From the NCBI RefSeq assembly GCF_041886205.1, contig NZ_CP169029.1: a stretch of 64,000 nucleotides of DNA; one strand, written 5' to 3'. The position numbers and the translations under genes were made by a program. Positions 4,633 to 58,710 of this stretch are shown here, piece after piece; position 1 is the first letter of the stretch, and every line of letters begins with the position of its first letter. The notes under the pieces are model-generated. The model saw only the letters and a program-made list of their open reading frames with translations. It ran no database searches and was not told the origin of the DNA. The stretch comes from Escherichia coli (GTDB lineage Bacteria; Pseudomonadota; Gammaproteobacteria; Enterobacterales; Enterobacteriaceae).

Positions 4633-5834
4633 GCGATCTCCTTAGCAGTCTGCGGTGCCGCACGGCGGAAGAAGCGTTTTTCCCAGCCGATAATCAACAT
4701 CAGCGCAGCAAACAACAGCAAATATGTCACCAGCAGACCACCCATCGGGCCAAAGGTTTTCAGCAGGTTGATTTTGTCCCAGTCGGTGGCCAGCGCCGGA
4801 GCGAAATCATCCCAGTAATACGCCAGAATCGTTGAGCCGATCACGTTGCCCAGACCGACCCACCAGTAGTGCACCTGGCCTTCTACCGCGCGGTACATCC
4901 AGCCGGTTTCGCAGCCGCCTGCCAGCACGATGCCAAAACCAAACAGTAAACCACCAATTACCGCGTTTGGTCCCGCCCACATGATTTTGGGTTCAACACC
5001 TAACTGTACGTAACTGAAGATCCCGATGGCACTCACCGCCATACCAATAATGATTGCTTTCGCCATGTGGGTACGTCCGGTGATCCACATATCGCGGAAC
5101 GCCGAAGTAAAGCAGATTTGCGCACGTTCAATCAGTAAACCAAAGCCGACGCCAAACAGCATTGCCAGCCCCAGTTTGGGTTGGTTCATCGCCGTGAGCA
5201 GCGCCCAGCCCAGCATGCCGAAAAAGACCAGCATCCCGAGACGAAAACGACGCCGCGCCTGATCCGGTTTTTGCGTCAGCGGTGAGGCGGCAGAAACTTT
5301 CTGCATTTTCACGGGAATACGGAAGATGGGCAGCAGGGTAAAGCGCGCGCCAAACCATGAACCAATGGCAGTGGCGATGGCAAAGAACCAGGCATGCAGC
5401 GAGAACTGAGGAATGCCGGTAAAGAACGCCGCCAGGTTACAGCCCATTGCCAGACGCGCGCCAAAACCGGCGATAATACCGCCAATAATGGCCTGCATAA
5501 TGCGGATACGGCTGCGCGGCATGCGTAGTTTGACATTGTTGGCCCACAGCGCTGCAGCAAAGCAGCCGCCAAACATACCGAGGATCATCATCCCGTCGAT
5601 GCGGGTTAATGGCGATCCTTCCAGATGGATAATTTTAAAATAACCCCACTCTTCAGCATGGATGCCGAACAGCTGCAGGAGCTGACCGCCCCAACGGGTA
5701 AATTCACCCGTGACAGCCCAAAAGGTGCCAGTAATGCCAAAATAGTAAGTGGAGAGAATACCCGCCGCGATGACCGCAGGGATGGGTGCCCAGAATTTAA
5801 TCAACCAGGCGTGTTTGAATTGCTGCCATGACAT
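4629..5834 (-). CDS. yedE: YeeE/YedE family inner-membrane transporter (putative selenium/sulfur compound transport)
   Basis: 401-aa hydrophobic polytopic ORF; synteny with yedF. Confidence 0.9.
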   Translation of the reverse strand: MSWQQFKHAWLIKFWAPIPAVIAAGILSTYYFGITGTFWAVTGEFTRWGGQLLQLFGIHAEEWGYFKIIHLEGSPLTRIDGMMILGMFGGCFAAALWANNVKLRMPRSRIRIMQAIIGGIIAGFGARLAMGCNLAAFFTGIPQFSLHAWFFAIATAIGSWFGARFTLLPIFRIPVKMQKVSAASPLTQKPDQARRRFRLGMLVFFGMLGWALLTAMNQPKLGLAMLFGVGFGLLIERAQICFTSAFRDMWITGRTHMAKAIIIGMAVSAIGIFSYVQLGVEPKIMWAGPNAVIGGLLFGFGIVLAGGCETGWMYRAVEGQVHYWWVGLGNVIGSTILAYYWDDFAPALATDWDKINLLKTFGPMGGLLVTYLLLFAALMLIIGWEKRFFRRAAPQTAKEIA

Positions 5835-8032: not shown

Positions 8033-8398
8033 TCACGAGAAGTTATCTTGCGGAGCCAGCACAAAGCCGCCCTGATCGCCATAGGCACTTAACACCGATT
8101 TTTGCACCGATGACTGACCGACCAGTTTCGCCAGTTCATTCATCCGAATCTGTAATAACTGCTTTACCTTGCTTTCGTTATCGAGAATCAGGCGCAGCAT
8201 CGGGCGGAGCTGCTCCTGCATCGTGGTGGACGGGTCAATCTCATCAGTCAGATGTGCAATCTCCTGCACCGCATTCACATACGCCATTTCGCTGGCGATG
8301 AGTTCGTCCCATTGTTCTTCCGTTGCCAGGCGTAACATGAGCTGGCTTTTTTCGACGAGTTGTTGCCAGGCGAAATACAAATGCGGTGCGTGGTTCAT
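8033..8398 (-). CDS. fliT: flagellar export chaperone FliT
   Basis: 121-aa ORF, last gene of fliDST; 1-nt overlap with fliS. Confidence 0.92.
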
Positions 8399-8808
8399 CA
8401 GACTGGGTCCTGAATCAAAGAAGGGGAGAGTAATGACTCTTTCCAGGCATCGGCAATATTGCGCATTAATGCTTCCACTTCTTCGACTGCGGAGACATCG
8501 TTGCGTAAATTGGCTTGCAGCAAACGCCTGACCATATAGCTATAAAGAGCAATCAAGTTTTGGGTTAGTTCGTCTTTGCTCTCTTCATCAAGACTCACCC
8601 GCAGTCCGTTCTCAATGATGTTGATCGCTTTTGACAAAGAGACGCCTTTGCCTTGCTGATTGTTGTCCTGCATAAACAGGCGCGCTCTAACCAGTGCGCT
8701 TAGCACTCCATCAAATAGCATGGTGACCAGCTGCTGCTGGCTGGCGCTCATTACGGCGCTTTCGACGCCAATTTGTGCATAGGCCTGGGTGCCTTTTGCC
8801 GCGTACAT
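8398..8808 (-). CDS. fliS: flagellin-specific export chaperone FliS
   Basis: 136-aa ORF recognised as FliS. Confidence 0.93.
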
Positions 8809-8823
8809 AGTATCTCCTGAAGA

Positions 8824-10239
8824 TTATTTCGAGTTGCTATTTGAGGTGTCGAACTGCTGTGTCAGATAGCTACTGGTGGAGTTAAGCGAGTTCATTAACA
8901 CATCTAATTGGGTGAACTGGGCTTTATAGCGCGTCATTAAGGTATCGATACGCTCACTGGCTGCGTTGTACTGGTCGGTCAAATTATTCAGCGTTTTGCT
9001 GACGCCATCTTTTGCGGCCTGGATTATCCCGGTGGAAGAGAGCCAACTGGTCAGGTTGCTACTAATGCCGGTGGTTACCCCTGTACTTTTACCGTCACCT
9101 ATAAACATTTCACCGATGCCAGTGGCATCTTTTTTTAGCGCCGTTTGCAGTTTGTCGGTCGCGATTTCCAGCTTGCCGGTACTGGCATCGCTGGTAACGC
9201 CAATCTGTGCCAGCGTTTTATAGTTTGAACTGCTGTGAGTATTGGCGAGCAAGGTTTTAAGCTGAGTCTGGATGGTACGCAGTGTGGAGTCACCGAGTAA
9301 TGCGCCATTACTGGAGTCCTGACTTTCTGCTCCGGCATCGACAGCGGTGTATTTGGTTAAGCTACTGAATGTATCCTGCAATGTGTTATAGGCATCCACC
9401 CATGCTTTGACCGCATTTTCAGCTTTGGATGTGTCTTTATTGATGGTCAGTGTCTGATTACCGGTGGTGACGTCATTCAGGTTGAGTGTGATATCTTCCA
9501 GCGCGTCGCTGATAGTGTTACTGCTGTTTTCAATCTCAACGTTATTGACTGTCAGTTTGGCGTTTTGCGCGGTGACGCTTTCAATCATGCCATTGCTGCT
9601 ATCACCCGACGTTCCGTTGTAACCCATAAAACTTTCCAGGGCGCTGTCGCCGCTGACGCTAAGTTTCATAGCGTTATCGTTGCCCGTATCGTTAGCGGTG
9701 ATGGACAGACGATATTCGCCGTTTCCCACATTGATGATACTGGCGCTGACACCAGCTTTGGCGTTGTTAATGGCATCGCGAATGCCGGAAAGTGACGAGT
9801 TAGCTGCGCTGATATCAATCGTGACCGGATCTTTACCGCCGCCTTGCTGGATGGTCAGTACGCTATCGCTGGTGGCGATGGCAGCTTTACTGTCTTTTTG
9901 ACTAATTTTTGTGGTCAGCGTTTGTGCCTGCGCCAGTTGGCTAACGCTAATGGTGTATTTCCCGGCAATCGCGCTGCCCGTGGTGGTGGCGCTGAAAGCC
10001 GATGAACTGCTGGTGGTTGAAGTGGCGGTAAATAAATCGGCTTTATTCAGTGCAGTGTTGGCTGTCTGGAAACTCTCTAGTGCACTTTTCAGCGTCCCGT
10101 AGGCGCTCAGTTTCGCGGTGTAAGAGCTTTGCTGTTTTGATATCGGCGTCAGGGTAGATTTTTCTGCCGCCTCCAGACTGTCAAGGATGCTGCTTAAGTC
10201 CAGCCCCGACCCAACCCCAAGCGTTGAAATACTAGCCAT
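8824..10239 (-). CDS. fliD: flagellar filament capping protein FliD
   Basis: 471-aa ORF recognised as FliD; sigma28 promoter upstream. Confidence 0.93.
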   Translation of the reverse strand: MASISTLGVGSGLDLSSILDSLEAAEKSTLTPISKQQSSYTAKLSAYGTLKSALESFQTANTALNKADLFTATSTTSSSSAFSATTTGSAIAGKYTISVSQLAQAQTLTTKISQKDSKAAIATSDSVLTIQQGGGKDPVTIDISAANSSLSGIRDAINNAKAGVSASIINVGNGEYRLSITANDTGNDNAMKLSVSGDSALESFMGYNGTSGDSSNGMIESVTAQNAKLTVNNVEIENSSNTISDALEDITLNLNDVTTGNQTLTINKDTSKAENAVKAWVDAYNTLQDTFSSLTKYTAVDAGAESQDSSNGALLGDSTLRTIQTQLKTLLANTHSSSNYKTLAQIGVTSDASTGKLEIATDKLQTALKKDATGIGEMFIGDGKSTGVTTGISSNLTSWLSSTGIIQAAKDGVSKTLNNLTDQYNAASERIDTLMTRYKAQFTQLDVLMNSLNSTSSYLTQQFDTSNSNSK

Positions 10240-10281
10240 ATAAATTCCTTAATCATGCGACGTATAGAACGAATACCGGGG

Positions 10282-10308
10282 TTATCGGCGTAAGCGGGGC
10301 AAAGTTTA
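10282..10308 (-). promoter_or_regulatory. sigma28 promoter of fliDST
   Basis: Minus strand reads TAAACTTT (10308-10301), 11-bp spacer, GCCGATAA (10289-10282); about 45 bp upstream of the fliD start. Confidence 0.7.
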
Positions 10309-10381
10309 CGATTTATTTTTTGGCTTAATGACACGAACAGCAACGAGGAAGGGGAGTATTTCGACCGCTAGAAAAAAATTC

Positions 10382-10408
10382 TAAAGGTTGTGAGTGACCA
10401 GACGATAA
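10382..10408 (+). promoter_or_regulatory. sigma28 promoter of fliC
   Basis: TAAAGGTT (10382-10389), 11-bp spacer, GACGATAA (10401-10408); about 75 bp upstream of the fliC ATG. Confidence 0.75.
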
Positions 10409-10484
10409 CAGGGTTGACGGCGACGAAGCCGAAGGGTGGAAGCCCAATACTTAAACCGTAGACTTGAAAACAGGAAAATGAATC

Positions 10485-11807
10485 ATGGCACAAGTCATTA
10501 ATACCAACAGCCTCTCGCTGATCACTCAGAACAACATCAACAAAAACCAGTCTGCGCTGTCGACTTCTATCGAGCGCCTCTCTTCTGGTCTGCGCATTAA
10601 CAGCGCTAAAGATGACGCTGCGGGCCAGGCGATTGCTAACCGCTTCACTTCTAACATCAAAGGTCTGACTCAGGCCGCACGTAACGCCAACGACGGTATC
10701 TCTCTGGCGCAGACCACTGAAGGCGCACTGTCTGAAATCAACAACAACTTGCAGCGTGTTCGTGAACTGACCGTTCAGGCCACTACCGGTACTAACTCTG
10801 ATTCTGACCTGTCTTCAATCCAGGACGAAATCAAATCCCGTCTCGATGAAATTGACCGCGTATCCGGTCAGACTCAGTTCAACGGCGTGAACGTACTGGC
10901 AAAAGATAACACCATGAAGATTCAGGTTGGTGCGAACGATGGTCAGACTATATCCATCGACCTGCAAAAAATCGACTCTTCTACTCTTGGTTTGAACGGT
11001 TTCTCCGTTTCTAAAAATGCTCTCGAAACTAGCGAAGCGATCACTCAGTTGCCGAACGGTGAGAATGCCCCAATCGCTGTGAAGATGGATGCGTCTGTTC
11101 TGACCGATCTTAACATTACTGATGCTTCTGCTGTTTCGCTGCACAACGTAACTAAAGGTGGTGTCGCAACGTCTACTTATGTTGTTCAGTATGGCGATAA
11201 GAGCTATGCAGCATCTGTTGATGCGGGAGGTACAGTAAAACTGAATAAAGCCGACGTAACATATAACGACGCAGCAAATGGTGTTAAGAATGCCACCCAG
11301 ATTGGTAGTCTGGTTCAGGTTGGTGCTGATGCAAACAATGATGCAGTTGGTTTTGTTACCGTGCAGGGGAAAAACTATGTTGCTAATGACTCATTAGTCA
11401 ATGCTAATGGCGCTGCTGGCGCTGAAGCAACTAGAGTTACAATTGATGGTGATGGTACTAACCAGGCTAAAATTGAACTTAGCCAAAATGGTGATACTGC
11501 TGCAACATCAGAGTTCGCTGGTGCTTCAACCAACGATCCACTGACTCTGCTGGACAAAGCTATCGCATCTGTTGATAAATTCCGTTCTTCTTTGGGGGCG
11601 GTACAGAACCGTCTGAGCTCCGCTGTAACCAACCTGAACAACACCACCACCAACCTGTCTGAAGCGCAGTCCCGTATTCAGGACGCCGACTATGCGACCG
11701 AAGTGTCCAACATGTCGAAAGCGCAGATTATCCAGCAGGCAGGTAACTCCGTGCTGTCCAAAGCTAACCAGGTACCGCAGCAGGTTCTGTCTCTGCTGCA
11801 GGGTTAA
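10485..11807 (+). CDS. fliC: flagellin FliC (non-K-12 allele, 440 aa)
   Basis: Conserved flagellin N terminus (MAQVINTNSLSLITQNNINKNQSALS...) and C terminus (...QVPQQVLSLLQG) with a divergent central domain. Confidence 0.95.
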   Translation: MAQVINTNSLSLITQNNINKNQSALSTSIERLSSGLRINSAKDDAAGQAIANRFTSNIKGLTQAARNANDGISLAQTTEGALSEINNNLQRVRELTVQATTGTNSDSDLSSIQDEIKSRLDEIDRVSGQTQFNGVNVLAKDNTMKIQVGANDGQTISIDLQKIDSSTLGLNGFSVSKNALETSEAITQLPNGENAPIAVKMDASVLTDLNITDASAVSLHNVTKGGVATSTYVVQYGDKSYAASVDAGGTVKLNKADVTYNDAANGVKNATQIGSLVQVGADANNDAVGFVTVQGKNYVANDSLVNANGAAGAEATRVTIDGDGTNQAKIELSQNGDTAATSEFAGASTNDPLTLLDKAIASVDKFRSSLGAVQNRLSSAVTNLNNTTTNLSEAQSRIQDADYATEVSNMSKAQIIQQAGNSVLSKANQVPQQVLSLLQG

Positions 11808-11850
11808 TCGTCGTAACCTGATTAACTGAGACTGACGGCAACGCCAAATT

Positions 11851-11950
<100 letters not shown>

Positions 11951-11980
11951 ACATCAAGCGCAATTTGTCAGCAACGTGCT

Positions 11981-12006
11981 CCCCCGCCACCGGCGGGGTT
12001 TTTTCT
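11981..12006 (+). terminator. rho-independent terminator of fliC
   Basis: CCCCGCC-ACC-GGCGGGG hairpin followed by T6. Confidence 0.65.
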
Positions 12007-12103
12007 GTCCGCAATTTACCGGTAACCCCCAAATAACCCCTCATTTCACCCACTAATCGTCCGATTAAAAACCCTGCAGAAACGGATAATCATGCCGATA
12101 ACT

Positions 12104-12111
12104 CATATAAC
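12104..12111 (+). promoter_or_regulatory. sigma28 -10-like element (GCCGATAA) just upstream of fliA
   Basis: Exact GCCGATAA 16 bp before the fliA GTG; no good TAAAGTTT -35 at the canonical spacing, so promoter status is uncertain. Confidence 0.3.
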
Positions 12112-12126
12112 GCAGGGCTGTTTATC

Positions 12127-12846
12127 GTGAATTCACTCTATACCGCTGAAGGTGTAATGGATAAACACTCGCTGTGGCAGCGTTATGTCCCGCTGGTGCG
12201 TCACGAAGCATTGCGCCTGCAGGTTCGACTGCCCGCGAGCGTGGAACTTGACGATCTGCTACAGGCGGGCGGCATTGGGTTACTTAATGCCGTCGAACGC
12301 TATGACGCCCTACAAGGAACGGCATTTACAACTTACGCAGTGCAGCGTATCCGTGGCGCTATGTTGGATGAACTTCGCAGCCGTGACTGGGTGCCGCGCA
12401 GCGTGCGACGCAACGCGCGTGAAGTGGCACAGGCAATAGGGCAACTGGAGCAGGAACTTGGCCGCAACGCCACGGAAACTGAGGTAGCGGAACGTTTAGG
12501 GATCGATATTGCCGATTATCGCCAAATGTTGCTCGACACCAATAACAGCCAGCTCTTCTCCTACGATGAGTGGCGCGAAGAGCACGGCGATAGCATCGAA
12601 CTGGTTACTGATGATCATCAGCGAGAAAACCCGCTACAACAACTGCTGGACAGTAATCTGCGTCAGCGGGTGATGGAAGCCATCGAAACGTTGCCGGAGC
12701 GCGAAAAACTGGTATTAACCCTCTATTACCAGGAAGAGCTGAATCTCAAAGAGATTGGCGCGGTGCTGGAGGTCGGGGAATCGCGGGTCAGTCAGTTACA
12801 CAGCCAGGCTATTAAACGGTTACGCACTAAACTGGGTAAGTTATAA
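12127..12846 (+). CDS. fliA: RNA polymerase sigma factor sigma28 FliA
   Basis: 239-aa ORF with GTG start recognised as FliA. Confidence 0.95.
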   Translation: MNSLYTAEGVMDKHSLWQRYVPLVRHEALRLQVRLPASVELDDLLQAGGIGLLNAVERYDALQGTAFTTYAVQRIRGAMLDELRSRDWVPRSVRRNAREVAQAIGQLEQELGRNATETEVAERLGIDIADYRQMLLDTNNSQLFSYDEWREEHGDSIELVTDDHQRENPLQQLLDSNLRQRVMEAIETLPEREKLVLTLYYQEELNLKEIGAVLEVGESRVSQLHSQAIKRLRTKLGKL

Positions 12847-12891
12847 CGTCAGTAAATGCCGCACTTTAACTTTGACTACCAGGAGTTCTTA

Positions 12892-13443
12892 ATGATGGTG
12901 CAGCACCTGAAAAGACGGCCATTAAGCCGCTATCTTAAAGACTTTAAACACAGCCAGACCCATTGCGCGCATTGCCGTAAATTACTCGATCGCATTACCT
13001 TAGTTCGCGACGGCAAAATAGTGAATAAAATCGAGATTTCCCGCCTGGACACGCTGCTTGATGAAAATGGCTGGCAAACGGAACAAAAATCATGGGCGGC
13101 ATTGTGCCGATTTTGCGGTGATTTACATTGCAAAACGCAGAGTGATTTTTTCGATATTATCGGCTTTAAGCAATTTCTTTTTGAGCAAACTGAAATGAGC
13201 CCTGGTACGGTGCGTGAATATGTCGTTCGTCTGCGCCGTTTGGGGAATCATCTACATGAGCAAAATATTTCCCTCGATCAGCTGCAGGACGGTTTCCTTG
13301 ATGAAATCCTCGCCCCGTGGCTGCCCACCACCAGCACCAACAATTACCGCATCGCATTACGGAAGTATCAACACTATCAGCGTCAAACGTGTACCGGACT
13401 TGTGCAGAAATCCTCCAGCCTGCCTGCTTCTGATATATATTAA
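12892..13443 (+). CDS. fliZ: regulator FliZ
   Basis: ORF 12856-13443; start moved to ATG at 12892 (MMVQHLKRRPLSRYL...) giving 183 aa. Confidence 0.9.
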   Translation: MMVQHLKRRPLSRYLKDFKHSQTHCAHCRKLLDRITLVRDGKIVNKIEISRLDTLLDENGWQTEQKSWAALCRFCGDLHCKTQSDFFDIIGFKQFLFEQTEMSPGTVREYVVRLRRLGNHLHEQNISLDQLQDGFLDEILAPWLPTTSTNNYRIALRKYQHYQRQTCTGLVQKSSSLPASDIY

Positions 13444-18098: not shown

Positions 18099-18556
18099 TT
18101 ATTTTCCTCGTCATGTTGCAATGAAAATTTGCGGTGAAAAATGTTAAGGCGGCGGAGTATACCATAAGCTTTGCTAAAAATAGCAGTGGTTGTTTTTTGA
18201 GCGTGCCGTCAACGGTGCTATTAAATGCGTTAATATAATGACCAATAAATATTTTTATCATGAATGTTTTTTGCCCGTATTGTTCGGGTTAATTAATGTT
18301 ACATATTCAGCGGGCTGATTTTCATTTTTGCTGAATAAAGGTAATTTTTGTCACATTTCGTCGCAGGGCTTACTGTGAAACGATCCGGTAAGCCGTTGGT
18401 GACGGGCGTGACCATAACTGTGGACAATCGAATTGACAAAAACGAGAGAAAAATCGAATACCCACCATTTTTAACGTTTCAAAGTTGCAATAAAAACCGC
18501 TAATATACGAATGACTAACTATCAGTAGCGTTATCCCTATTTCTGGAGATATTCCT

Positions 18557-30370: not shown

Positions 30371-33726
<3,356 letters not shown>

Positions 33727-34161: not shown

Positions 34162-34940
34162 AACCTGTTCCTTATTCTGTGAACTTCAGGTGACATTAAA
34201 GCTTTACTCCTAATGGAGAAACGACGCAATCCCAACTCGGTCAAACAGGTAAATATTAGTCTGATTATTAGTAAAGACAATTAATCAATCACTCCCGGTG
34301 ATCATATAATTTCAAATGTAATTATAAGAAAATAGTGTACTGATTCTCCGCATTAAACAAGTGGTTAATATATGTAAAACATTTCATTAATATTAAGTTG
34401 ATTGTTGCCTTTCTTTGTATTTAATTAGTTTGTTGTGCGGTAAGTGTCTGTTTAAAAATAGCTTATCTGGTATTGCATGAAAGTGATTATTTATAGCAGA
34501 TGATTATTTACGGTGAGTTATTTTGACTGTGCGCAACATCCCATTTCGATTATTCCTGTTTCATTTTTGCTTGCTAGCGTAGCGAAAAACTTTTTAACAG
34601 ATTGAAATACACCCAAAACAAAAGTATGACTTATACATTTATGTTAAGTAATTGAGTGTTTTGTGTGATCTGCATCACACATTATTGAAAATCGCAGCCC
34701 CCCTCCGTTGTATGTGCGTGTAGTGACGAGTACAGTTGCGTCGATTTAGGAAAAATCTTAGATAAGTGTAAAGAACCATTTCTATTTGTAAGGACATATT
34801 AAACCAAAAAGGTGGTTCTGCTTATTGCAGCTTATCGCAACTATTCTAATGCTAATTATTTTTTACCGGGGCTTCCCGGCGACATCACGGGGTGCGGTGA
34901 AACCGCATAAAAATAAAGTTGGTTATTCTGGGTGGGAATA
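34162..34940 (+). promoter_or_regulatory. flhDC upstream regulatory region and 5' leader (class 1 flagellar promoter)
   Basis: 779-bp AT-rich non-coding region before flhD; no IS element present; individual operator sites not resolved here. Confidence 0.6.
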
Positions 34941-35291
34941 ATGCATACCTCCGAGTTGCTGAAACACATTTATGACATCAACTTGTCATATTTACTACTT
35001 GCACAGCGTTTGATTGTTCAGGACAAAGCGTCCGCTATGTTTCGTCTCGGCATAAATGAAGAAATGGCGACAACGTTAGCGGCACTGACTCTTCCGCAAA
35101 TGGTTAAGCTGGCAGAAACCAATCAACTGGTTTGTCACTTCCGTTTTGACAGCCACCAGACGATTACTCAGTTGACGCAAGATTCCCGCGTTGACGATCT
35201 CCAGCAAATTCATACCGGCATCATGCTCTCAACACGCTTGCTGAATGATGTTAATCAGCCTGAAGAAGCGCTGCGCAAGAAAAGGGCCTGA
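34941..35291 (+). CDS. flhD: flagellar master regulator subunit FlhD
   Basis: Start at ATG 34941 ([24 protein letters not shown]...) giving 116 aa; the ORF-track start 9 nt upstream is a GTG extension. Confidence 0.93.
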
Positions 35292-35293
35292 TC

Positions 35294-35872
35294 ATGAGTG
35301 AAAAAAGCATTGTTCAGGAAGCGCGGGATATTCAGCTGGCAATGGAATTGATCACCCTGGGCGCTCGTTTGCAGATGCTGGAAAGCGAAACACAGTTAAG
35401 TCGCGGACGCCTGATAAAACTTTATAAAGAACTGCGCGGAAGCCCACCGCCGAAAGGCATGCTGCCATTCTCAACCGACTGGTTTATGACCTGGGAACAA
35501 AACGTTCATGCTTCGATGTTCTGTAATGCATGGCAGTTTTTACTGAAAACCGGTTTGTGTAATGGCGTCGATGCGGTGATCAAAGCCTACCGTTTATACC
35601 TTGAACAGTGCCCACAAGCAGAAGAAGGACCACTGCTGGCATTAACCCGTGCCTGGACATTGGTGCGGTTTGTTGAAAGTGGATTACTGCAACTTTCCAG
35701 CTGCAACTGCTGCGGCGGCAATTTTATTACCCACGCTCACCAGCCTGTTGGCAGCTTTGCCTGCAGCTTATGTCAACCGCCATCCCGGGCAGTAAAAAGA
35801 CGTAAACTTTCCCAGAATCCTGCCGATATTATCCCACAACTGCTGGATGAACAGAGAGTACAGGCTGTTTAA
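35294..35872 (+). CDS. flhC: flagellar master regulator subunit FlhC
   Basis: 192-aa ORF with C-terminal zinc-binding cysteine cluster. Confidence 0.95.
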
Positions 35873-35898
35873 CTGATACGGTGAGGCGCAACATTCCA

Positions 35899-35930
35899 GC
35901 AGCGGTAACGACGTACCGCTGCTTTTTTTT
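35899..35930 (+). terminator. rho-independent terminator after flhC
   Basis: GCAGCGGTA/TACCGCTGC 9-bp stem followed by T8. Confidence 0.7.
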
Positions 35931-35998: not shown

Positions 35999-36882
35999 GT
36001 GCTTATCTTATTAGGTTACCTGGTTGTTCTCGGTACAGTTTTCGGCGGTTATTTGATGACCGGTGGAAGCCTTGGAGCACTCTATCAACCCGCTGAACTG
36101 GTGATTATTGCCGGTGCAGGGATTGGGTCGTTTATCGTCGGCAATAATGGCAAAGCGATTAAAGGCACGCTGAAGGCGCTGCCGTTGCTGTTTCGTCGCT
36201 CCAAATACACCAAAGCAATGTATATGGATCTGCTGGCTCTGCTTTATCGGTTGATGGCGAAATCGCGGCAGATGGGGATGTTTTCGCTGGAACGTGATAT
36301 TGAAAATCCCCGTGAGAGCGAGATCTTCGCCAGCTACCCACGCATCCTCGCGGATAGCGTCATGCTTGATTTTATCGTCGATTATCTGCGTCTGATTATC
36401 AGCGGTCATATGAACACCTTCGAAATCGAAGCCCTGATGGATGAAGAGATTGAGACGCACGAAAGCGAGGCAGAAGTCCCGGCGAACAGTCTGGCGCTGG
36501 TCGGGGACTCACTTCCGGCGTTTGGTATTGTCGCGGCTGTAATGGGGGTCGTTCACGCGTTAGGTTCAGCCGATCGTCCTGCCGCCGAGCTGGGTGCGCT
36601 TATCGCACATGCGATGGTGGGGACTTTCCTCGGCATTTTATTGGCTTACGGATTTATTTCCCCATTAGCGAGTGTTTTACGTCAGAAAAGCGCCGAAACC
36701 AGCAAAATGATGCAGTGCGTCAAAGTCACTCTGCTTTCTAATCTGAACGGTTACGCACCGCCTATCGCCGTTGAGTTTGGTCGCAAAACGCTCTATTCCA
36801 GCGAACGTCCGTCGTTTATTGAACTGGAAGAGCATGTGCGTGCGGTGAAAAATCCGCAACAACAGACGACAACCGAGGAAGC

Positions 36883-36886
<4 letters not shown>
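35999..36886 (+). CDS. motA: flagellar motor stator protein MotA
   Basis: 295-aa ORF with GTG start; 4-nt overlap with motB. Confidence 0.95.
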
Positions 36887-39778
<2,892 letters not shown>

Positions 39779-39798
39779 ATGAGTAAAAAGGTAACAAT

Positions 39799-40302
39799 AT
39801 GACCGGTATGACGAATGTAACAAAGCTGGCCAGCGAGCCGTCAGGCCAGGAATTTCTGGTATTTACCCTTGGTGATGAAGAGTACGGTATTGATATCCTG
39901 AAAGTGCAGGAGATCCGTGGCTACGATCAGGTAACACGGATTGCGAACACGCCAGCGTTTATCAAAGGCGTCACGAATCTGCGCGGCGTTATTGTGCCGA
40001 TTGTTGACTTGCGAATTAAGTTCAGCCAGGTGGATGTGGACTATAACGACAACACGGTAGTTATCGTCCTGAATCTCGGACAGCGGGTGGTCGGCATCGT
40101 GGTTGACGGCGTTTCAGACGTGCTTTCATTGACGGCGGAGCAAATTCGTCCGGCACCAGAGTTTGCCGTGACGCTTTCAACAGAATATCTCACTGGACTG
40201 GGCGCACTGGGCGACCGGATGTTGATTCTGGTGAACATCGAAAAACTGCTGAACAGCGAAGAGATGGCGCTGTTAGATAGCGCGGCGTCAGAAGTGGCGT
40301 AA
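39799..40302 (+). CDS. cheW: chemotaxis coupling protein CheW
   Basis: 167-aa ORF recognised as CheW. Confidence 0.95.
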
Positions 40303-40330
40303 TTCTCCCGATTTCCTCAATTGAAATGAA

Positions 40331-40358
40331 CCCGATGATCTGCGCATCGGGTTTTTTA
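40331..40358 (+). terminator. rho-independent terminator after cheW
   Basis: CCCGATG-ATCTGCG-CATCGGG hairpin followed by T6. Confidence 0.7.
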
Positions 40359-40388
40359 TTTCAATTTCGCGGCGGGTGGCATCAGCAA

Positions 40389-40415
40389 TAAAGTTTCCCC
40401 CCTTCTTGCCGATAA
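40389..40415 (+). promoter_or_regulatory. sigma28 (FliA) class 3 promoter of tar-tap-cheRBYZ
   Basis: Exact consensus TAAAGTTT-N11-GCCGATAA. Confidence 0.8.
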
Positions 40416-40446: not shown

Positions 40447-42108
40447 ATGATTAACCGTATCCGCGTAGTCACGCTGTTGGTAATGGTGCTGGGGGTATTC
40501 GCACTGTTACAGCTTATTTCCGGCAGTCTGTTTTTTTCTTCCCTTCACCATAGCCAGAAGAGCTTTGTGGTTTCCAATCAATTGCGGGAACAGCAGGGCG
40601 AGCTGACGTCAACCTGGGATTTAATGCTGCAAACGCGCATTAACCTGAGTCGTTCAGCGGTGCGGATGATGATGGATTCCTCCAATCAACAAAGTAACGC
40701 CAAAGTTGAATTGCTCGATAGCGCCAGGAAAACATTGGCGCAGGCAGCGACGCATTATAAAAAATTCAAAAGCATGGCACCGTTACCTGAAATGGTCGCT
40801 ACCAGTCGTAATATTGATGAAAAATATAAAAACTATTACACAGCGTTAACTGAACTGATTGATTATCTTGATTATGGCAATACTGGAGCTTATTTCGCTC
40901 AGCCAACCCAGGGAATGCAAAATGCAATGGGCGAAGCGTTTGCTCAGTACGCCCTCAGCAGTGAAAAACTGTATCGCGATATCGTCACTGACAACGCAGA
41001 TGATTACCGATTTGCGCAGTGGCAACTGGCGATTATCGCGCTGGTGGTGGTATTGATTCTGCTGGTGGCGTGGTACGGCATTCGCCGTATGTTGCTTACT
41101 CCGCTGGCAAAAATTATTGCTCACATTCGCGAAATCGCCGGTGGTAACCTGGCGAATACCCTGACCATTGACGGGCGCAGTGAAATGGGCGACCTGGCGC
41201 AGAGCGTTTCACATATGCAACGCTCTTTGACTGACACCGTCACTCATGTGCGAGAAGGTTCAGATGCCATCTATGCCGGTACCCGTGAAATTGCGGCGGG
41301 CAACACCGATCTTTCCTCCCGTACTGAACAGCAGGCATCCGCGCTGGAAGAAACTGCCGCCAGCATGGAGCAGCTCACCGCGACAGTGAAGCAAAACGCC
41401 GATAACGCCCGCCAGGCCTCGCAACTGGCGCAAAGTGCCTCCGACACCGCCCAGCACGGCGGCAAAGTGGTGGATGGCGTAGTGAAAACGATGCATGAGA
41501 TCGCCGATAGTTCGAAGAAAATTGCCGACATTATCAGCGTTATCGACGGTATTGCCTTCCAGACTAATATCCTCGCGCTGAATGCCGCGGTTGAAGCCGC
41601 GCGTGCGGGTGAACAGGGCCGTGGTTTTGCCGTGGTGGCGGGTGAAGTGCGTAATCTTGCCAGTCGCAGCGCCCAGGCGGCAAAAGAGATCAAAGCCCTC
41701 ATTGAAGACTCCGTCTCACGCGTTGATACCGGTTCGGTGCTGGTCGAAAGCGCCGGGGAAACAATGAACAATATCGTCAATGCTGTCACTCGCGTGACTG
41801 ACATTATGGGCGAGATTGCATCGGCATCGGATGAACAGAGCCGTGGCATCGATCAAGTCGCATTGGCGGTTTCGGAAATGGATCGCGTCACGCAACAGAA
41901 CGCATCGCTGGTGCAGGAATCAGCTGCCGCCGCCGCTGCGCTGGAAGAACAGGCGAGTCGTTTAACGCAAGCGGTTTCCGCGTTCCGTCTGGCAGCCAGC
42001 CCACTCACCAATAAACCGCAAACACCATCCCGTCCTGCCAGTGAGCAACCACCGGCACAGCCACGACTGCGAATTGCTGAACAAGATCCAAACTGGGAAA
42101 CATTTTGA
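40447..42108 (+). CDS. tar: methyl-accepting chemotaxis protein II Tar
   Basis: ORF 40426-42108; start at 40447 ([16 protein letters not shown]...) giving 553 aa; C-terminal NWETF pentapeptide. Confidence 0.95.
41286..41925 (+). repeat. tar copy of the tar/tap paralogous signalling-domain repeat
   Basis: About 640 bp highly similar to 42988-43620 in tap, with long near-identical runs; source of the mirrored antisense ORFs. Confidence 0.85.
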
Positions 42109-42153
42109 CGAGTATTTACTAACGCGGTCATTGCCGCCTGATGGGGAGCGTTG

Positions 42154-43755
42154 ATGTTTAATCGTATTCGAATTTCGACCACGCTGTTTTTAATTTTGAT
42201 TCTCTGCGGGATCTTGCAGATTGGCAGTAACGGCATGTCTTTTTGGGCATTTCGCGACGATTTGCAACGACTGAATCAGGTCGAGCAGAGCAATCAGCAA
42301 CGTGCGGCATTAGCGCAAACTCGGGCGGTAATGTTACAGGCCAGTACCGCGCTGAACAAAGCGGGCACTCTGACGGCACTTAGCTATCCGGCGGATGACA
42401 TTAAAACGTTGATGACGACGGCGCGCGCCAGTCTGACGCAATCCACCACGCTGTTTAAAAGTTTTATGGCGATGACTGCGGGCAACGAGCACGTCAGGGG
42501 ATTGCAAAAAGAGACGGAGAAAAGTTTTGCCCGCTGGCACAACGATCTCGAACATCAGGCGACCTGGCTTGAAAGTAATCAACTTTCGGATTTCCTCACT
42601 GCGCCGGTGCAGGGATCACAGAATGCGTTTGACGTTAACTTTGAGGCCTGGCAGCTGGAGATCAACCATGTGCTGGAAGCCGCCAGTGCGCAAAGCCAGC
42701 GTAACTATCAGATTTCGGCACTGGTGTTTATCAGCATGATTATTGTTGCGGCGATCTACATCAGCAGTGCGCTGTGGTGGACGCGCAAGATGATTGTTCA
42801 ACCACTGGCCATTATCGGTAGCCATTTTGACAGCATTGCTGCGGGTAATCTGGCGCGTCCGATTGCGGTATATGGTCGTAATGAGATCACCGCCATTTTT
42901 GCCAGTCTGAAGACCATGCAGCAGGCTTTGCGTGGGACGGTAAGTGATGTGCGTAAGGGAAGCCAGGAGATGCACATTGGTATCGCGGAGATTGTCGCAG
43001 GCAATAACGATCTCTCAAGTCGTACCGAACAGCAGGCGGCATCGCTGGCACAAACGGCCGCCAGTATGGAGCAATTAACCGCCACGGTAGGGCAAAACGC
43101 CGATAACGCGCGCCAGGCGTCGGAACTGGCAAGAAATGCCGCGACAACGGCGCAGGCGGGCGGTGTTCAGGTCAGTACCATGACTCACACTATGCAGGAG
43201 ATCGCCACCAGCTCGCAAAAAATTGGCGACATTATCAGCGTTATCGACGGCATTGCTTTCCAGACCAATATTCTGGCCCTGAATGCGGCAGTGGAAGCGG
43301 CTCGCGCCGGAGAGCAGGGGCGTGGTTTTGCGGTAGTGGCAGGTGAAGTGCGCAATCTTGCCAGCCGTAGCGCGCAGGCAGCAAAAGAGATCAAAGGGCT
43401 GATCGAAGAGTCAGTCAATCGTGTCCAGCAGGGTTCGAAACTGGTGAATAACGCCGCCGCGACCATGACCGATATTGTCAGTTCGGTGACCCGCGTGAAC
43501 GACATTATGGGAGAAATTGCTTCGGCGTCTGAAGAACAACAGCGGGGGATTGAGCAGGTTGCACAGGCTGTCAGCCAGATGGATCAGGTGACTCAGCAGA
43601 ACGCCTCGCTGGTAGAAGAAGCGGCGGTGGCAACGGAACAACTGGCGAATCAGGCCGACCATCTTTCGTCGCGTGTGGCGGTATTTACCCTTGAAGAACA
43701 TGAAGTAGCACGACATGAGTCGGCGCAGTTACAAATTGCGCCAGTGGTATCCTGA
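42154..43755 (+). CDS. tap: methyl-accepting chemotaxis protein IV Tap
   Basis: 533-aa ORF (MFNRIRISTTLFLILILCG...); MCP signalling domain; lacks NWETF. Confidence 0.93.
   Translation: MFNRIRISTTLFLILILCGILQIGSNGMSFWAFRDDLQRLNQVEQSNQQRAALAQTRAVMLQASTALNKAGTLTALSYPADDIKTLMTTARASLTQSTTLFKSFMAMTAGNEHVRGLQKETEKSFARWHNDLEHQATWLESNQLSDFLTAPVQGSQNAFDVNFEAWQLEINHVLEAASAQSQRNYQISALVFISMIIVAAIYISSALWWTRKMIVQPLAIIGSHFDSIAAGNLARPIAVYGRNEITAIFASLKTMQQALRGTVSDVRKGSQEMHIGIAEIVAGNNDLSSRTEQQAASLAQTAASMEQLTATVGQNADNARQASELARNAATTAQAGGVQVSTMTHTMQEIATSSQKIGDIISVIDGIAFQTNILALNAAVEAARAGEQGRGFAVVAGEVRNLASRSAQAAKEIKGLIEESVNRVQQGSKLVNNAAATMTDIVSSVTRVNDIMGEIASASEEQQRGIEQVAQAVSQMDQVTQQNASLVEEAAVATEQLANQADHLSSRVAVFTLEEHEVARHESAQLQIAPVVS
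42988..43620 (+). repeat. tap copy of the tar/tap paralogous signalling-domain repeat
   Basis: See 41286-41925. Confidence 0.85.
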
Positions 43756-43773
43756 AGTGATTGAGAAGGCGCT

Positions 43774-44634
43774 ATGACTTCATCTCTACCCTGTGGGCAA
43801 ACGTCTTTATTGTTACAGATGACCGAGCGCCTGGCGCTTTCCGACGCGCATTTTCGGCGGATAAGTCAATTGATCTATCAACGAGCCGGGATCGTTCTGG
43901 CTGACCATAAACGCGACATGGTTTACAACCGACTGGTTCGTCGTTTGCGTTCGCTGGGACTGACGGATTTCGGTCATTATCTGAACTTGCTGGAATCTAA
44001 TCAGCACAGCGGTGAGTGGCAGGCGTTTATCAATTCGCTGACCACGAATCTGACGGCATTTTTCCGTGAGGCACACCATTTCCCTCTGCTCGCGGATCAC
44101 GCACGTCGCCGTTCTGGCGAGTATCGCGTATGGAGCGCGGCGGCTTCGACCGGCGAAGAGCCGTACAGCATTGCGATGACGCTGGCTGACACATTGGGCA
44201 CCGCGCCCGGACGCTGGAAAGTGTTTGCCAGTGATATCGACACCGAAGTGCTGGAAAAAGCCAGAAGCGGTATTTATCGCCATGAAGAGTTGAAAAACCT
44301 GACGCCGCAGCAACTGCAACGGTATTTCATGCGAGGGACGGGACCGCATGAAGGGCTGGTACGCGTGCGTCAGGAGCTGGCGAACTATGTTGATTTTGCC
44401 CCGCTGAATCTACTGGCGAAACAGTACACCGTGCCGGGGCCGTTTGATGCGATCTTCTGTCGTAACGTCATGATCTACTTCGATCAAAATACCCAGCAGG
44501 AGATTTTGCGCCGCTTTGTTCCGCTCCTTAAACCCGACGGATTGCTGTTTGCGGGTCACTCTGAAAACTTTAGCCACCTTGAGCGCCGCTTCACGCTGCG
44601 TGGTCAGACGGTGTATGCGCTAAGTAAGGATTAA
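43774..44634 (+). CDS. cheR: chemotaxis methyltransferase CheR
   Basis: 286-aa ORF recognised as CheR. Confidence 0.95.
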
Positions 44635-44636
44635 CG

Positions 44637-46090
<1,454 letters not shown>

Positions 46091-46100
46091 GGATGCGACT

Positions 46101-46745
46101 ATGATGCAACCATCAATCAAACCTGCTGACGAGCATTCAGCTGGCGATATCATTGCGCGCATCGGCAGCCTGACGCGTATGCTGCGCGACAGTTTGCGGG
46201 AACTGGGGCTGGATCAGGCCATTGCCGAAGCGGCGGAAGCCATCCCCGATGCGCGCGATCGTTTGTACTATGTTGTGCAGATGACCGCCCAGGCTGCGGA
46301 GCGGGCGCTGAACAGTGTTGAGGCGTCACAACCGCATCAGGATCAAATGGAGAAATCAGCAAAAGCGTTAACCCAACGTTGGGATGACTGGTTTGCCGAT
46401 CCGATTAACCTTGCCGACGCCCGTGAACTGGTAACAGACACGCGGCAATTTCTGGCAGATATACCCGCGCATACCAGCTTTACAAACGCGCAACTGCTGG
46501 AAATCATGATGGCGCAGGATTTTCAGGATCTCACCGGACAGGTTATTAAGCGGATGATGGATGTCATTCAGGAGATCGAACGCCAGTTGCTGATGGTGCT
46601 GTTGGAAAACATCCCGGAACAGGAGTCGCGTCCAAAACGTGAAAACCAGAGTTTGCTTAATGGACCTCAGGTCGATACCAGCAAAGCCGGTGTGGTAGCC
46701 AGTCAGGATCAGGTGGACGATTTGTTGGATAGTCTTGGATTTTGA
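46101..46745 (+). CDS. cheZ: CheY-P phosphatase CheZ
   Basis: ORF 46071-46745; start at 46101 ([12 protein letters not shown]...) giving 214 aa. Confidence 0.93.
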
Positions 46746-46946: not shown

Positions 46947-48095
46947 GTGTCTGACGAGAGCGACGACAAAACAGAAGCCCCCACACCTCACCGACTAGAA
47001 AAAGCGCGGGAAGAGGGGCAAATCCCGCGTTCCCGTGAACTGACCTCACTGCTGATTTTGCTGGTGGGCGTTAGTGTTATCTGGTTTGGCGGTGTGTCGC
47101 TGGCCCGTCGATTGTCGGGCATGCTCTCCGCTGGGCTGCATTTTGATCACAGTATTATCAATGACCCGAATCTGATCCTCGGGCAGATTATTCTGCTGAT
47201 CAGAGAAGCCATGCTGGCGCTGCTGCCGCTGATTAGCGGCGTGGTGCTGGTGGCGCTCATTTCTCCGGTCATGCTGGGAGGGCTGGTATTTAGCGGCAAA
47301 TCCTTGCAGCCGAAGTTTTCCAAACTCAACCCGCTACCGGGCATTAAACGGATGTTCTCGGCTCAGACTGGCGCGGAGTTGCTTAAAGCAATTTTGAAAA
47401 CCATCCTGGTTGGCAGCGTGACGGGGTTTTTTCTCTGGCATCACTGGCCGCAGATGATGCGCTTAATGGCCGAGTCTCCGATTACCGCCATGGGTAATGC
47501 GATGGATTTGGTAGGGCTATGCGCACTGCTGGTGGTGCTTGGTGTCATTCCAATGGTGGGATTTGACGTCTTTTTCCAAATCTTCAGCCACCTGAAAAAG
47601 CTGCGAATGTCGCGGCAGGATATTCGTGATGAGTTCAAACAAAGCGAAGGCGACCCCCATGTTAAAGGACGGATCCGTCAGATGCAGCGAGCTGCCGCAC
47701 GGCGTCGGATGATGGCCGATGTGCCGAAAGCGGATGTCATTGTCAATAACCCGACCCACTATTCGGTAGCGTTGCAGTATGACGAAAACAAAATGAGCGC
47801 ACCGAAAGTGGTCGCTAAAGGTGCAGGGCTGGTCGCGCTGCGCATTCGTGAAATTGGCGCTGAAAATAACGTCCCGACGCTTGAAGCGCCGCCGCTGGCG
47901 CGAGCGCTGTATCGACATGCGGAGATTGGTCAACAAATCCCGGGTCAACTGTACGCCGCGGTGGCGGAAGTGCTGGCCTGGGTCTGGCAACTGAAACGCT
48001 GGCGTCTGGCTGGTGGACAGCGCCCTGTACAACCTACTCATCTTCCGGTGCCGGAAGCCCTGGATTTTATTAACGAGAAACCGACCCATGAGTAA
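46947..48095 (+). CDS. flhB: flagellar type III export protein FlhB
   Basis: 382-aa ORF with GTG start; NPTH autocleavage motif present. Confidence 0.95.
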   Translation: MSDESDDKTEAPTPHRLEKAREEGQIPRSRELTSLLILLVGVSVIWFGGVSLARRLSGMLSAGLHFDHSIINDPNLILGQIILLIREAMLALLPLISGVVLVALISPVMLGGLVFSGKSLQPKFSKLNPLPGIKRMFSAQTGAELLKAILKTILVGSVTGFFLWHHWPQMMRLMAESPITAMGNAMDLVGLCALLVVLGVIPMVGFDVFFQIFSHLKKLRMSRQDIRDEFKQSEGDPHVKGRIRQMQRAAARRRMMADVPKADVIVNNPTHYSVALQYDENKMSAPKVVAKGAGLVALRIREIGAENNVPTLEAPPLARALYRHAEIGQQIPGQLYAAVAEVLAWVWQLKRWRLAGGQRPVQPTHLPVPEALDFINEKPTHE

Positions 48096-50166: not shown

Positions 50167-50558
50167 TGAGAGCCTTATTAGCAATATTATTGTTTCCGCT
50201 GCTGGTGCAAGCCGCCGGGGAGGGGATGTGGCAGGCGAGTAGTGTGGGCGTTACGCTGAATCACCGTGGTGAGTCGATGTCGTCAGCGCCTCTTTCTACT
50301 CGACAACCTGCTTCAGGATTGATGACGCTGGTGGCGTGGCGTTATCAGCTTATCGGTCCGACACCTGCAGGATTGCGGGTTCGCTTGTGTTCGCAATCTC
50401 GTTGTGTCGAATTAGATGGGCAGAGCGGAACCACCGTGGCCTTTTCCGGTATAGCGGCAGCAGAACCGTTGCGCTTTATCTGGGAAGTGCCTGGCGGTGG
50501 GCGGTTAATTCCGCCGCTGAAAGTACAACGTAATGAAGTGATTGTGAATTATCGCTGA
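50166..50558 (+). CDS. flhE: flagellar protein FlhE
   Basis: 130-aa ORF with signal peptide; ATG overlaps the flhA stop. Confidence 0.9.
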   Translation: MRALLAILLFPLLVQAAGEGMWQASSVGVTLNHRGESMSSAPLSTRQPASGLMTLVAWRYQLIGPTPAGLRVRLCSQSRCVELDGQSGTTVAFSGIAAAEPLRFIWEVPGGGRLIPPLKVQRNEVIVNYR

Positions 50559-53863: not shown

Positions 53864-54619
<756 letters not shown>

Positions 54620-55005
54620 TTTTTACCGTTGCATCATGTCGCCCAATATGATGCTTGCTCGTACCAGGCCCCTGCAATTTCAACAGGGGCCTTTTTTTAT
54701 TTCTGAATAGTATAAAAAACGAACGATTGCCGTGATCTGTTGAGCGGGTGACAGTGCGCATAGCGTTGTGCTAAAAATATTTTATATATTCACATTAATT
54801 ATGGGATTTAAATTGCTAAAACTGATAAATATATATTCTAAATAGCAACTGGGTTATTCCTTAGAAATTAAGGATTACATTGTAATAAATCATATTCTTT
54901 TTCGATTATTTCAGGCAGTGTTGTGCCGAATTATGCAAGCGGTTAATTCGTTGTATATTTAATTATACAATGATTTCGGTGTTCTGGAATTAAATATAGG
55001 AATCT

Positions 55006-58611: not shown

Positions 58612-58710
58612 GCCTGATGCGCTATGCTTATCAGGCCTACATAGTCCCTGCAATATATTGAATTAGCAAGGTTTTGTAGGCCGGATAAGGCGTTCACGCC
58701 GCATCCGGCA
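58612..58710. repeat. BIME (pair of inverted REP units) between torZ and cmoB
   Basis: GCCTGATGCGCTATGCTTATCAGGCCTACA ... TGTAGGCCGGATAAGGCGTTCACGCCGCATCCGGCA; near-identical to the element at 11851-11950. Confidence 0.8.

Follow-up and report, generated by a model that had tools for sequence, protein, structure and literature searches.

Promoters read by the flagellar sigma factor sigma28 (FliA/SigD) form a class with two octamers set a constant 11 nt apart, in which a CGAT core dominates the -10 element. Their consensus is TAAAGTTT-N11-GCCGATAA (Koo et al. 2009, as cited in PMC2859248). The promoters considered here are textbook members of that class and have been mapped genome-wide in Escherichia coli K-12 (fliCp, fliDp, tarp, motAp, and fliAp2; Fitzgerald, Bonocora and Wade 2014, PMC4183435). 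In that ChIP-seq study, the FliA FAT scores were 110 at fliC, the strongest FliA target in the cell, 101 at motA, 91 at fliA, 57 at tar, 43 at fliD, and 2 at an antisense site in otsA. Deletion of fliA lowered K-12 RNA-seq values from 2319 to 11 for fliC, from 302 to 1 for motA, and from 251 to 0 for tar; fliD fell from 633 to 356 only, and otsA expression was unchanged (PMC4183435). Start sites listed from RegulonDB (Table S3, PMC4183435) for fliCp, tarp, and fliAp2 derive from transcription-initiation mapping, which puts every one of them 7 nt downstream of its -10 octamer; the RegulonDB evidence for the K-12 fliD promoter is footprinting only. The motA promoter, published as the most conserved FliA promoter, has its -10 element encoded by the FlhC Ala177-Asp178 codons (GCC GAT), and it also produces the sRNA MotR, whose annotated K-12 5' end is 7 nt after the motA octamer.

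Salmonella and Citrobacter provide a further close comparison. Their fliC and fliD genes share with the DNA described here the divergent layout, a TAAACTTT-N11-GCCGATAA fliD promoter, and N11 spacing; the leader is of similar length, and two hairpins in the fliC 5' untranslated region (UTR) are kept via compensatory changes. The fliC octamers differ, being TAAAGTTC/GCCGATAC in Salmonella and Citrobacter and TAAAGGTT/GACGATAA here.

The window, by which we mean the whole 64-kb stretch of DNA analysed, is chromosomal. Positions 9800 to 12900 matched E. coli chromosomes (megablast), with 100% identity to strain wlxctx60, and the entire window is 13 SNPs apart from that strain. Its orientation is the reverse of K-12 MG1655. 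Gene assignments were carried over from the annotation of a near-identical genome (Table 1). The cognate sigma factor is encoded within the window by an intact gene, and its product is 100% identical to K-12 FliA over 239 aa, so specificity data from K-12 carry over. All flagellar and che open reading frames in the window are intact as well. An initial annotation of this DNA had spoken of an intact FliA regulon, which holds for the part of the regulon that the window covers; flgM, flgKL, tsr, trg, aer, and the rest of the regulon lie outside it.

Candidate sites were read directly and searched for with a 27-nt consensus pattern (up to 3 mismatches). They were also scored with a leave-out weight matrix built from the 46 K-12 FliA ChIP-seq motifs outside the region (Table 2, PMC4183435), which was run over both strands of the window and over 200 Markov-1 random 64-kb sequences. 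Sequence, position, statistics, orthology, conservation, and the integrity of FliA were established in this analysis; FliA binding, start sites, FliA dependence, and FlgM coupling were taken from the K-12 and Salmonella literature.

Table 1. Genes, promoters, and associated elements in the window, with leave-out sigma28 matrix scores
Feature	Position	Strand	Details	Matrix score (bits)
yedE/yedF overlap, matrix hit	4667-4694	+		15.5
fliT, fliS, fliD	8033-10239	-	annotation of near-identical genome
fliD	8824-10239	-	ATG at 10239
fliDST FliA (sigma28) promoter	10282-10308	-	TAAACTTT-N11-GCCGATAA; one mismatch, in the -35	19.4
Probable FlhDC box, class 2 (sigma70) side of the dual fliD promoter	10327-10370	.	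inferred
A-tract	10371-10381	+	GAAAAAAATTC; adjoins fliC -35
fliC FliA (sigma28) class 3 promoter	10382-10408	+	TAAAGGTT-N11-GACGATAA; two mismatches	13.7
fliC 5' UTR	10415-10484	+	two short 5'-proximal hairpins, 10418-10431 and 10434-10445
fliC	10485-11807	+	440 aa; ATG at 10485
fliAp2, FliA-dependent side of the dual fliAZ promoter	12075-12101	+	-35 TGCAGAAA; -10 GCCGATAA at 12094-12101	16.3
fliA (sigma28 gene)	12127-12846	+	239 aa; GTG start at 12127
fliZ	12892-13443	+	annotation of near-identical genome
Weak FliA site antisense within otsA	32571-32597	-	TGAAATTG-N11-GCCGATAA	15.9
flhDC	34941-35872	+	annotation of near-identical genome
motAB-cheAW/MotR FliA promoter, inside the flhC 3' end	35803-35829	+	TAAACTTT-N11-GCCGATAT	22.0
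motAB-cheAW	35999-40302	+	annotation of near-identical genome
Intrinsic terminator, end of motAB-cheAW operon	40328-40354	+	10-pair stem, then T-run
tar-tap-cheRBYZ FliA class 3 promoter	40389-40415	+	TAAAGTTT-N11-GCCGATAA; exact consensus	25.7
tar-tap-cheRBYZ	40447-46745	+	tar 40447-42108; ATG at 40447
flhBAE	46947-50558	+	annotation of near-identical genome

The sites before fliD, fliC, tar, motA, and fliA are almost certainly genuine promoters of RNA polymerase carrying FliA. The first four match the consensus with one (fliD), two (fliC), no (tar), and two (motA) mismatches, all with an N11 spacer; at fliD, the -35 element occupies 10308-10301 and the -10 element 10289-10282. The promoters lie upstream of, and are oriented toward, late flagellar and chemotaxis operons, with the -10 element ending 42 bp (fliD), 76 bp (fliC), 31 bp (tar), 169 bp (motA), and 25 bp (fliA) before the start codon or gene. 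The initial annotation had named the fliD site on the minus strand with its single -35 mismatch, the fliC site, and the exact-consensus tar site as all three class 3 promoters of the stretch. Direct reading and pattern search recovered each of them, and the divergent fliD/fliC pair and the tar site are orthologues of ChIP-bound, FliA-dependent sites in K-12. It had overlooked motA, with which the canonical class 3 operon promoters of the window number four and not three. By analogy with K-12, the label "class 3" probably overstates the share of FliA at fliD, which is dual regulated, and at fliA.

These motifs could in principle be chance resemblances to the sigma28 consensus, the genes being read from other promoters, for example sigma70 ones. 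The weight matrix gives that view some footing: the best score per random 64-kb sequence averaged 14.9 bits (95th percentile, 18.5), and although tar, motA, and fliD exceed the 95th percentile and are thus significant by sequence alone, fliC and fliA fall inside the range that chance produces in 64 kb. Two further matrix hits score equally well, one where yedE and yedF overlap, on the strand that codes for neither (Table 1) and one antisense in fliZ, at 13156-13183(-). Both are identical in K-12, where no ChIP peak lies over them, and they were counted as false positives. Chance would give 0.58 pattern matches in the window; the search nonetheless found five, a number that 0 of 100 shuffles reached, and for the octamer GCCGATAA by itself the count is 10 where 2.2 would be expected. 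Each promoter motif also stands in the right orientation and at the right distance from a known late flagellar gene, and its K-12 orthologue is bound in ChIP and has a mapped start site; the octamers are conserved while the spacers vary, the motif recurs at every evaluable flagellin locus (see below), and a search for a sigma70 consensus promoter in the fliD-fliC intergenic region (10150-10550) found none. We regard chance resemblance as vanishingly unlikely. For fliC, whose motif lies within the chance range of the matrix, the assignment to FliA rests on position, orthology, and conservation.

Two other candidates were discarded. The RegulonDB-predicted yecFp is ChIP-negative in K-12, and in the window its -10 element is destroyed (GCCGATAT to GTTGACGG), making it a useful negative control. 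Also rejected was yecR as a FliA target; it is a target of FlhDC.

For each of the six K-12 FliA ChIP-seq sites that map to the region, the window contains an orthologous motif. The 28-mers at motA, otsA, and fliA are identical between K-12 and the window. The remaining three (tar, fliC, and fliD) differ in their spacers, tar by a single base, and fliD also by one -10 base toward the consensus: the window has GCCGATAA, whereas the K-12 fliDST site reads TAAACTTT..ACCGATAA. Genes, order, orientation, and 11-nt spacing are otherwise as in K-12, as are the octamers and the sequence from them to the start site (save for the fliD -10); at fliC, identity to K-12 fliCp extends over both octamers and 15 nt downstream. 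Because the start sites are mapped in K-12 and the sequence from the -10 element to the start is identical in the window, transcription is predicted by orthology to begin at T 10415 for fliC (70-nt leader to the ATG), C 40422 for tar (25-nt leader), T 12108 for fliA (19-nt leader to the GTG), and A 35836 for motA. The fliD start is inferred at T 10275, with a 36-nt leader, from the 7-nt rule that these four mapped K-12 promoters follow. FliA binding and FliA-dependent transcription would likewise carry over to the window sites from their K-12 orthologues.

Among complete E. coli genomes, the fliD-fliC intergenic region exists as two haplotypes. The window belongs to the minority one, found at 95% identity or more in about 1325 of 4513 matched genomes; the other, around 70% identical to the window, is carried by about 3187 genomes, K-12 and O157:H7 among them. 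The two haplotypes agree at 31 of 32 octamer bases, compared with 9 of 22 bases in the fliD and fliC spacers (the count that the window also shares with K-12; Fisher P = 5e-6). The fliC-proximal half of the window region is 95% identical to Pseudocitrobacter and 71% to K-12. For the tar promoter, 5376 of the 5426 complete E. coli genomes carry the 72-bp region at 95% identity or more.

Across species, flagellin loci were chosen solely by a degenerate pattern of flagellin N-terminal codons, one genome per species, and the sigma28 match was taken as whichever site within 250 bp upstream of the flagellin ATG fitted the consensus best. All 116 evaluable loci, which include Enterobacterales and Variovorax, had a match with 3 or fewer mismatches and an N11 spacer, ending 66 to 99 bp before the ATG, and all 67 divergent fliD loci had a TAAACTTT-N11-GCCGATAA-like promoter, usually 35 to 44 bp before the fliD ATG (exact TAAACTTT in 64, the other three being one or two bases off); picking the best consensus match inflates octamer conservation in these tallies, and a motif-blind alignment is the fairer test. 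In such an alignment (MAFFT, 23 Enterobacteriaceae intergenic regions), the four octamers stood out as invariant blocks and the spacers were free to vary. The TAAAGGTT/GACGATAA variant of fliC is common to Escherichia, Enterobacter, Kluyvera, Pantoea, Erwinia, and others. Since the mismatched octamers of both fliC and fliD recur across lineages, they are lineage-conserved variants and not products of decay.

Within the control region, the -35 elements of fliD and fliC face each other 73 bp apart, compared with about 92 bp in K-12. The stretch from the probable FlhDC box to the A-tract before fliC is about 19 bp shorter in the window than in K-12. Because 140 bp separates the two start sites (about 10275 and 10415), there is room for both polymerases to load together without overlapping. 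Although its flanks diverge, the A-tract is conserved in E. coli and in most Enterobacteriaceae, and it may act as an UP-like element for fliC. Downstream, the conserved hairpins of the fliC 5' UTR start 3 nt after the predicted start site. Their eight predicted pairs were compared over 16 genomes; in each hairpin, the closing pair covaries in a compensatory manner (C-G/U-A and U-A/C-G/U-G), and this covariation is what supports the hairpins, as the single-sequence fold of the 5' UTR was not significant by itself (z = -1.43).

Between the two sigma28 promoters, the alignment of the 23 Enterobacteriaceae revealed the conserved blocks TTAATGGCGGGAATAA and GAGTATTTCGGCGGCTAA. In the window they contain FlhDC-box-like half-sites, AATGACACGAACAGCA and AGTATTTCGACCGCTA, with 12 bp between them. 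The published FlhDC consensus is an imperfect inverted repeat, tNAAcGCc(N)2AAATAgcg; it is degenerate and weak for calls from sequence only, and each half-site agrees with it at about 5 of 8 core positions, equally in the window and K-12. The fliD-proximal half-site, itself putative, is altered in the window at positions otherwise conserved across genera. In K-12, the fliD promoter is occupied by FlhDC (ChIP-qPCR) and fliDST is a dual FlhDC/FliA promoter, on which grounds we read these blocks as a probable FlhDC box that would give fliD a class 2 input. That the fliD-fliC interval yielded no sigma70 consensus is as expected for activator-dependent class 2 promoters.

This raises the question of how much FliA contributes at fliD and fliA. 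Its element there may be secondary, most transcription coming from FlhDC-activated sigma70 polymerase, in which case the two promoters are dual and not class 3; we consider this fairly probable. K-12 fliD retains more than half of its RNA-seq signal without fliA and drops to 3 in an flhD deletion, FlhDC is found at fliD and also at the fliA promoter (ChIP-seq), and the authors of the K-12 study held that dual targets are mostly FlhDC-driven under the conditions used. The FlhDC-box-like blocks described above fit the same picture. FliA is nevertheless present at both K-12 promoters by ChIP (43 at fliD, 91 at fliA), expression of the dual targets rises when fliA is overexpressed in an flhD deletion, and an older array study found fliD down 9.9-fold in a fliA deletion; the window, moreover, has at fliD a perfect -10 octamer, better than that of K-12. 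A dual-promoter reading complements the assignment of these sites to FliA and does not exclude it.

The octamer before fliA was described in the initial annotation as an isolated copy 16 bp before the gene and without a matching -35. It is indeed exact, and its partner, TGCAGAAA, agrees with the consensus at only 3 of 8 positions, as at the K-12 site; its distance from the GTG is 25 bp. With that poor -35 and a matrix score in the chance range, the octamer might be thought to lack promoter function. Its 28-mer is, though, identical to one of the strongest FliA ChIP-seq sites in K-12 (FAT, 91), which is RegulonDB fliAp2, with an experimentally mapped start site 7 nt downstream of the octamer. 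A functionless octamer is thus very improbable: what had been called isolated is the -10 element of a known promoter. From the K-12 data, the fliA promoter of the window is taken to be autoregulated and dual, receiving FliA in addition to FlhDC and sigma70.

The GCC GAT of the motA -10 element begins in the window at 35822, which is flhC codon 177. An Rfam scan of the window gave no family match to MotR or FliX; its matches were C0465, MicL, ES036, and three tRNAs only. The strong terminator of the motAB-cheAW operon is identical in K-12 and ends 34 bp before the tar -35 element; it would insulate the tar promoter against upstream read-through. The otsA antisense site, at which K-12 expression does not respond to loss of fliA, is probably a non-functional or pervasive intragenic promoter.

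Taken together with the literature, these features fit the established flagellar hierarchy, which in this strain would run as follows. Region 4 of FliA would read the TAAAGTTT-like -35 octamer, and regions 2 and 3 the GCCGATAA-like extended -10 octamer exactly 11 nt downstream, with transcription starting 7 nt after the latter. The fliD and fliC operons would be transcribed divergently from two separate FliA promoters, tar from its own consensus promoter immediately after the terminator of the upstream operon, and motA from a promoter embedded in the end of flhC. FlhDC and sigma70 would switch on fliA and partly also fliD, which would receive this early (class 2) signal through the probable FlhDC box that separates its promoter from that of fliC; the -10 element read by FliA at its own gene would add positive autoregulation on top of FlhDC/sigma70 control. 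The anti-sigma factor FlgM would hold FliA until the hook-basal body is complete and FlgM is exported, whereupon free FliA-RNA polymerase would fire fliC, fliD, motA, and tar, together with its own gene via fliAp2.

The late flagellar and chemotaxis promoters and fliA are intact in this strain, a result of little importance beyond annotation; it does mean that regulatory knowledge from K-12 is transferable to the strain. For annotation, a sigma28 matrix by itself cannot separate the fliC promoter from background, yet it flags the unbound yedE/yedF and fliZ sites, and position, orthology, and conservation are needed besides its score. The minority haplotype allows a further, speculative reading, in which it rewires the early (FlhDC) relative to the late (FliA) input that fliD receives, or brings bound FlhDC near enough to the fliC promoter to affect it. 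Its grounds are the loss of about 19 bp, the altered FlhDC half-site, the consensus fliD -10, and the Pseudocitrobacter-like fliC-proximal half, and we judge it improbable. Were it true, the timing of cap and flagellin expression would differ from that of K-12 in about a quarter of sequenced E. coli.

Around fliC, identity to the Escherichia coli K-12 proteins was graded (8033-12846 of the window), with divergence peaking at FliC itself (60% identical; 440 aa, versus 498 aa in K-12), and identities of 80% for FliD, 96% for FliT, 99% for FliS, and 100% for FliA. The stretch is a recombined H-antigen cassette, with the promoters inside the recombined tract.

The fliD-fliC intergenic region occurred in E. 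coli as two sharply different haplotypes, only ~70% identical to each other, one window-like (~1,325 genomes) and one K-12-like (~3,187 genomes). The fliC-proximal 128 bp of the window region was 95% identical to that of Pseudocitrobacter faecalis (L028, a flagellin locus fetched from another genome), versus 71% to K-12, and a deletion of ~19 to 21 bp was common to the window and P. faecalis. Because of these identities and the common deletion, we suggest that the control region of the flagellin locus was swapped between genera together with the H-antigen gene. Coordinates of this and the other features are collected in the table.

Features of the window (sigma28 scores from a matrix of K-12 FliA sites; other scores from Rfam)
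Feature	Position	Strand	Score (bits)	Remarks
fliD-fliC intergenic region	10240-10484			compared with K-12 and P. faecalis (L028)
yecFp, sigma28 promoter predicted in RegulonDB	~18205-18232	-		inside yecU
sigma28-like motif, yedE/yedF overlap	4667-4694	+	15.5	strand opposite both genes
sigma28-like motif in fliZ	13156-13183	-	12.9	antisense
uspC-flhD intergenic region (flhDC regulatory region)	34162-34940			779 bp
MotR, sigma28-dependent sRNA	35836-35930			motA 5' UTR; orthology with K-12 annotation
FliX, sigma28-dependent sRNA	~11811-12005			fliC 3' UTR; runs to the terminator that precedes the fliA promoter; orthology with K-12 annotation
C0465 (RF00116), sRNA candidate of unknown function	40322-40399	-	111.6	Rfam match
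MicL, sigmaE-dependent sRNA	54391-54698	+	370.7	within cutC; Rfam
ES036/CssrF	58633-58675	-		Rfam

Two 4-bp hairpins were found in the leading 31 nt of the fliC transcript (10415-10445); they were kept in 16 genomes, with compensatory changes at the closing pairs. The loop of the second hairpin reads GGAA in the Escherichia/Enterobacter type and another GGA lies in the Shine-Dalgarno region, so the transcript would fit a putative CsrA-type binding layout.

Some resemblances to sigma28 promoters were set aside. yecFp was rejected as a working promoter, since its K-12 copy (TAACGTAT-N11-GCCGATAT) was ChIP negative and the −10 element is lost in the window, where it reads GTTGACGG; this loss is consistent with a promoter that was never functional. 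The motifs at the yedE/yedF overlap and in fliZ combine a −10 of exactly GCCGATAA with a poor −35. Their K-12 counterparts have the same sequence and no reported FliA ChIP peak.

Neither MotR nor FliX was detected by any Rfam 15 model in the window scan. The C0465 match overlaps both the cheW terminator and the −35 element of tar, and may represent the terminator and intergenic region placed on the wrong strand. MicL and ES036/CssrF are already known features with no bearing on the present finding. By annotation, the uspC-flhD region contained no insertion sequence, whereas that of MG1655 carries IS1H; the flhDC regulatory region here is the uninterrupted wild-type arrangement. An uninterrupted region usually goes with lower motility.

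Elsewhere among the fetched flagellin loci, two short contigs (L077 and L078) in the actinobacterial metagenome bin “Collinsella sp. Map_57_008” bore fliD-fliC regions, one E. coli K-12-like and one Salmonella/Citrobacter-like, and are almost certainly bin contamination. Flagellin genes of the betaproteobacterium Variovorax (L004, L008, L010, and others) had the coding start MAQVINTN, as in other loci, behind near-consensus promoters (TAAAGGTT/TAAATGTT-N11-GCCGATAA) located mostly 95 to 99 bp upstream of the ATG (80 bp in L052, another of these loci). These Variovorax promoters mark how widely the sigma28 promoter grammar reaches.
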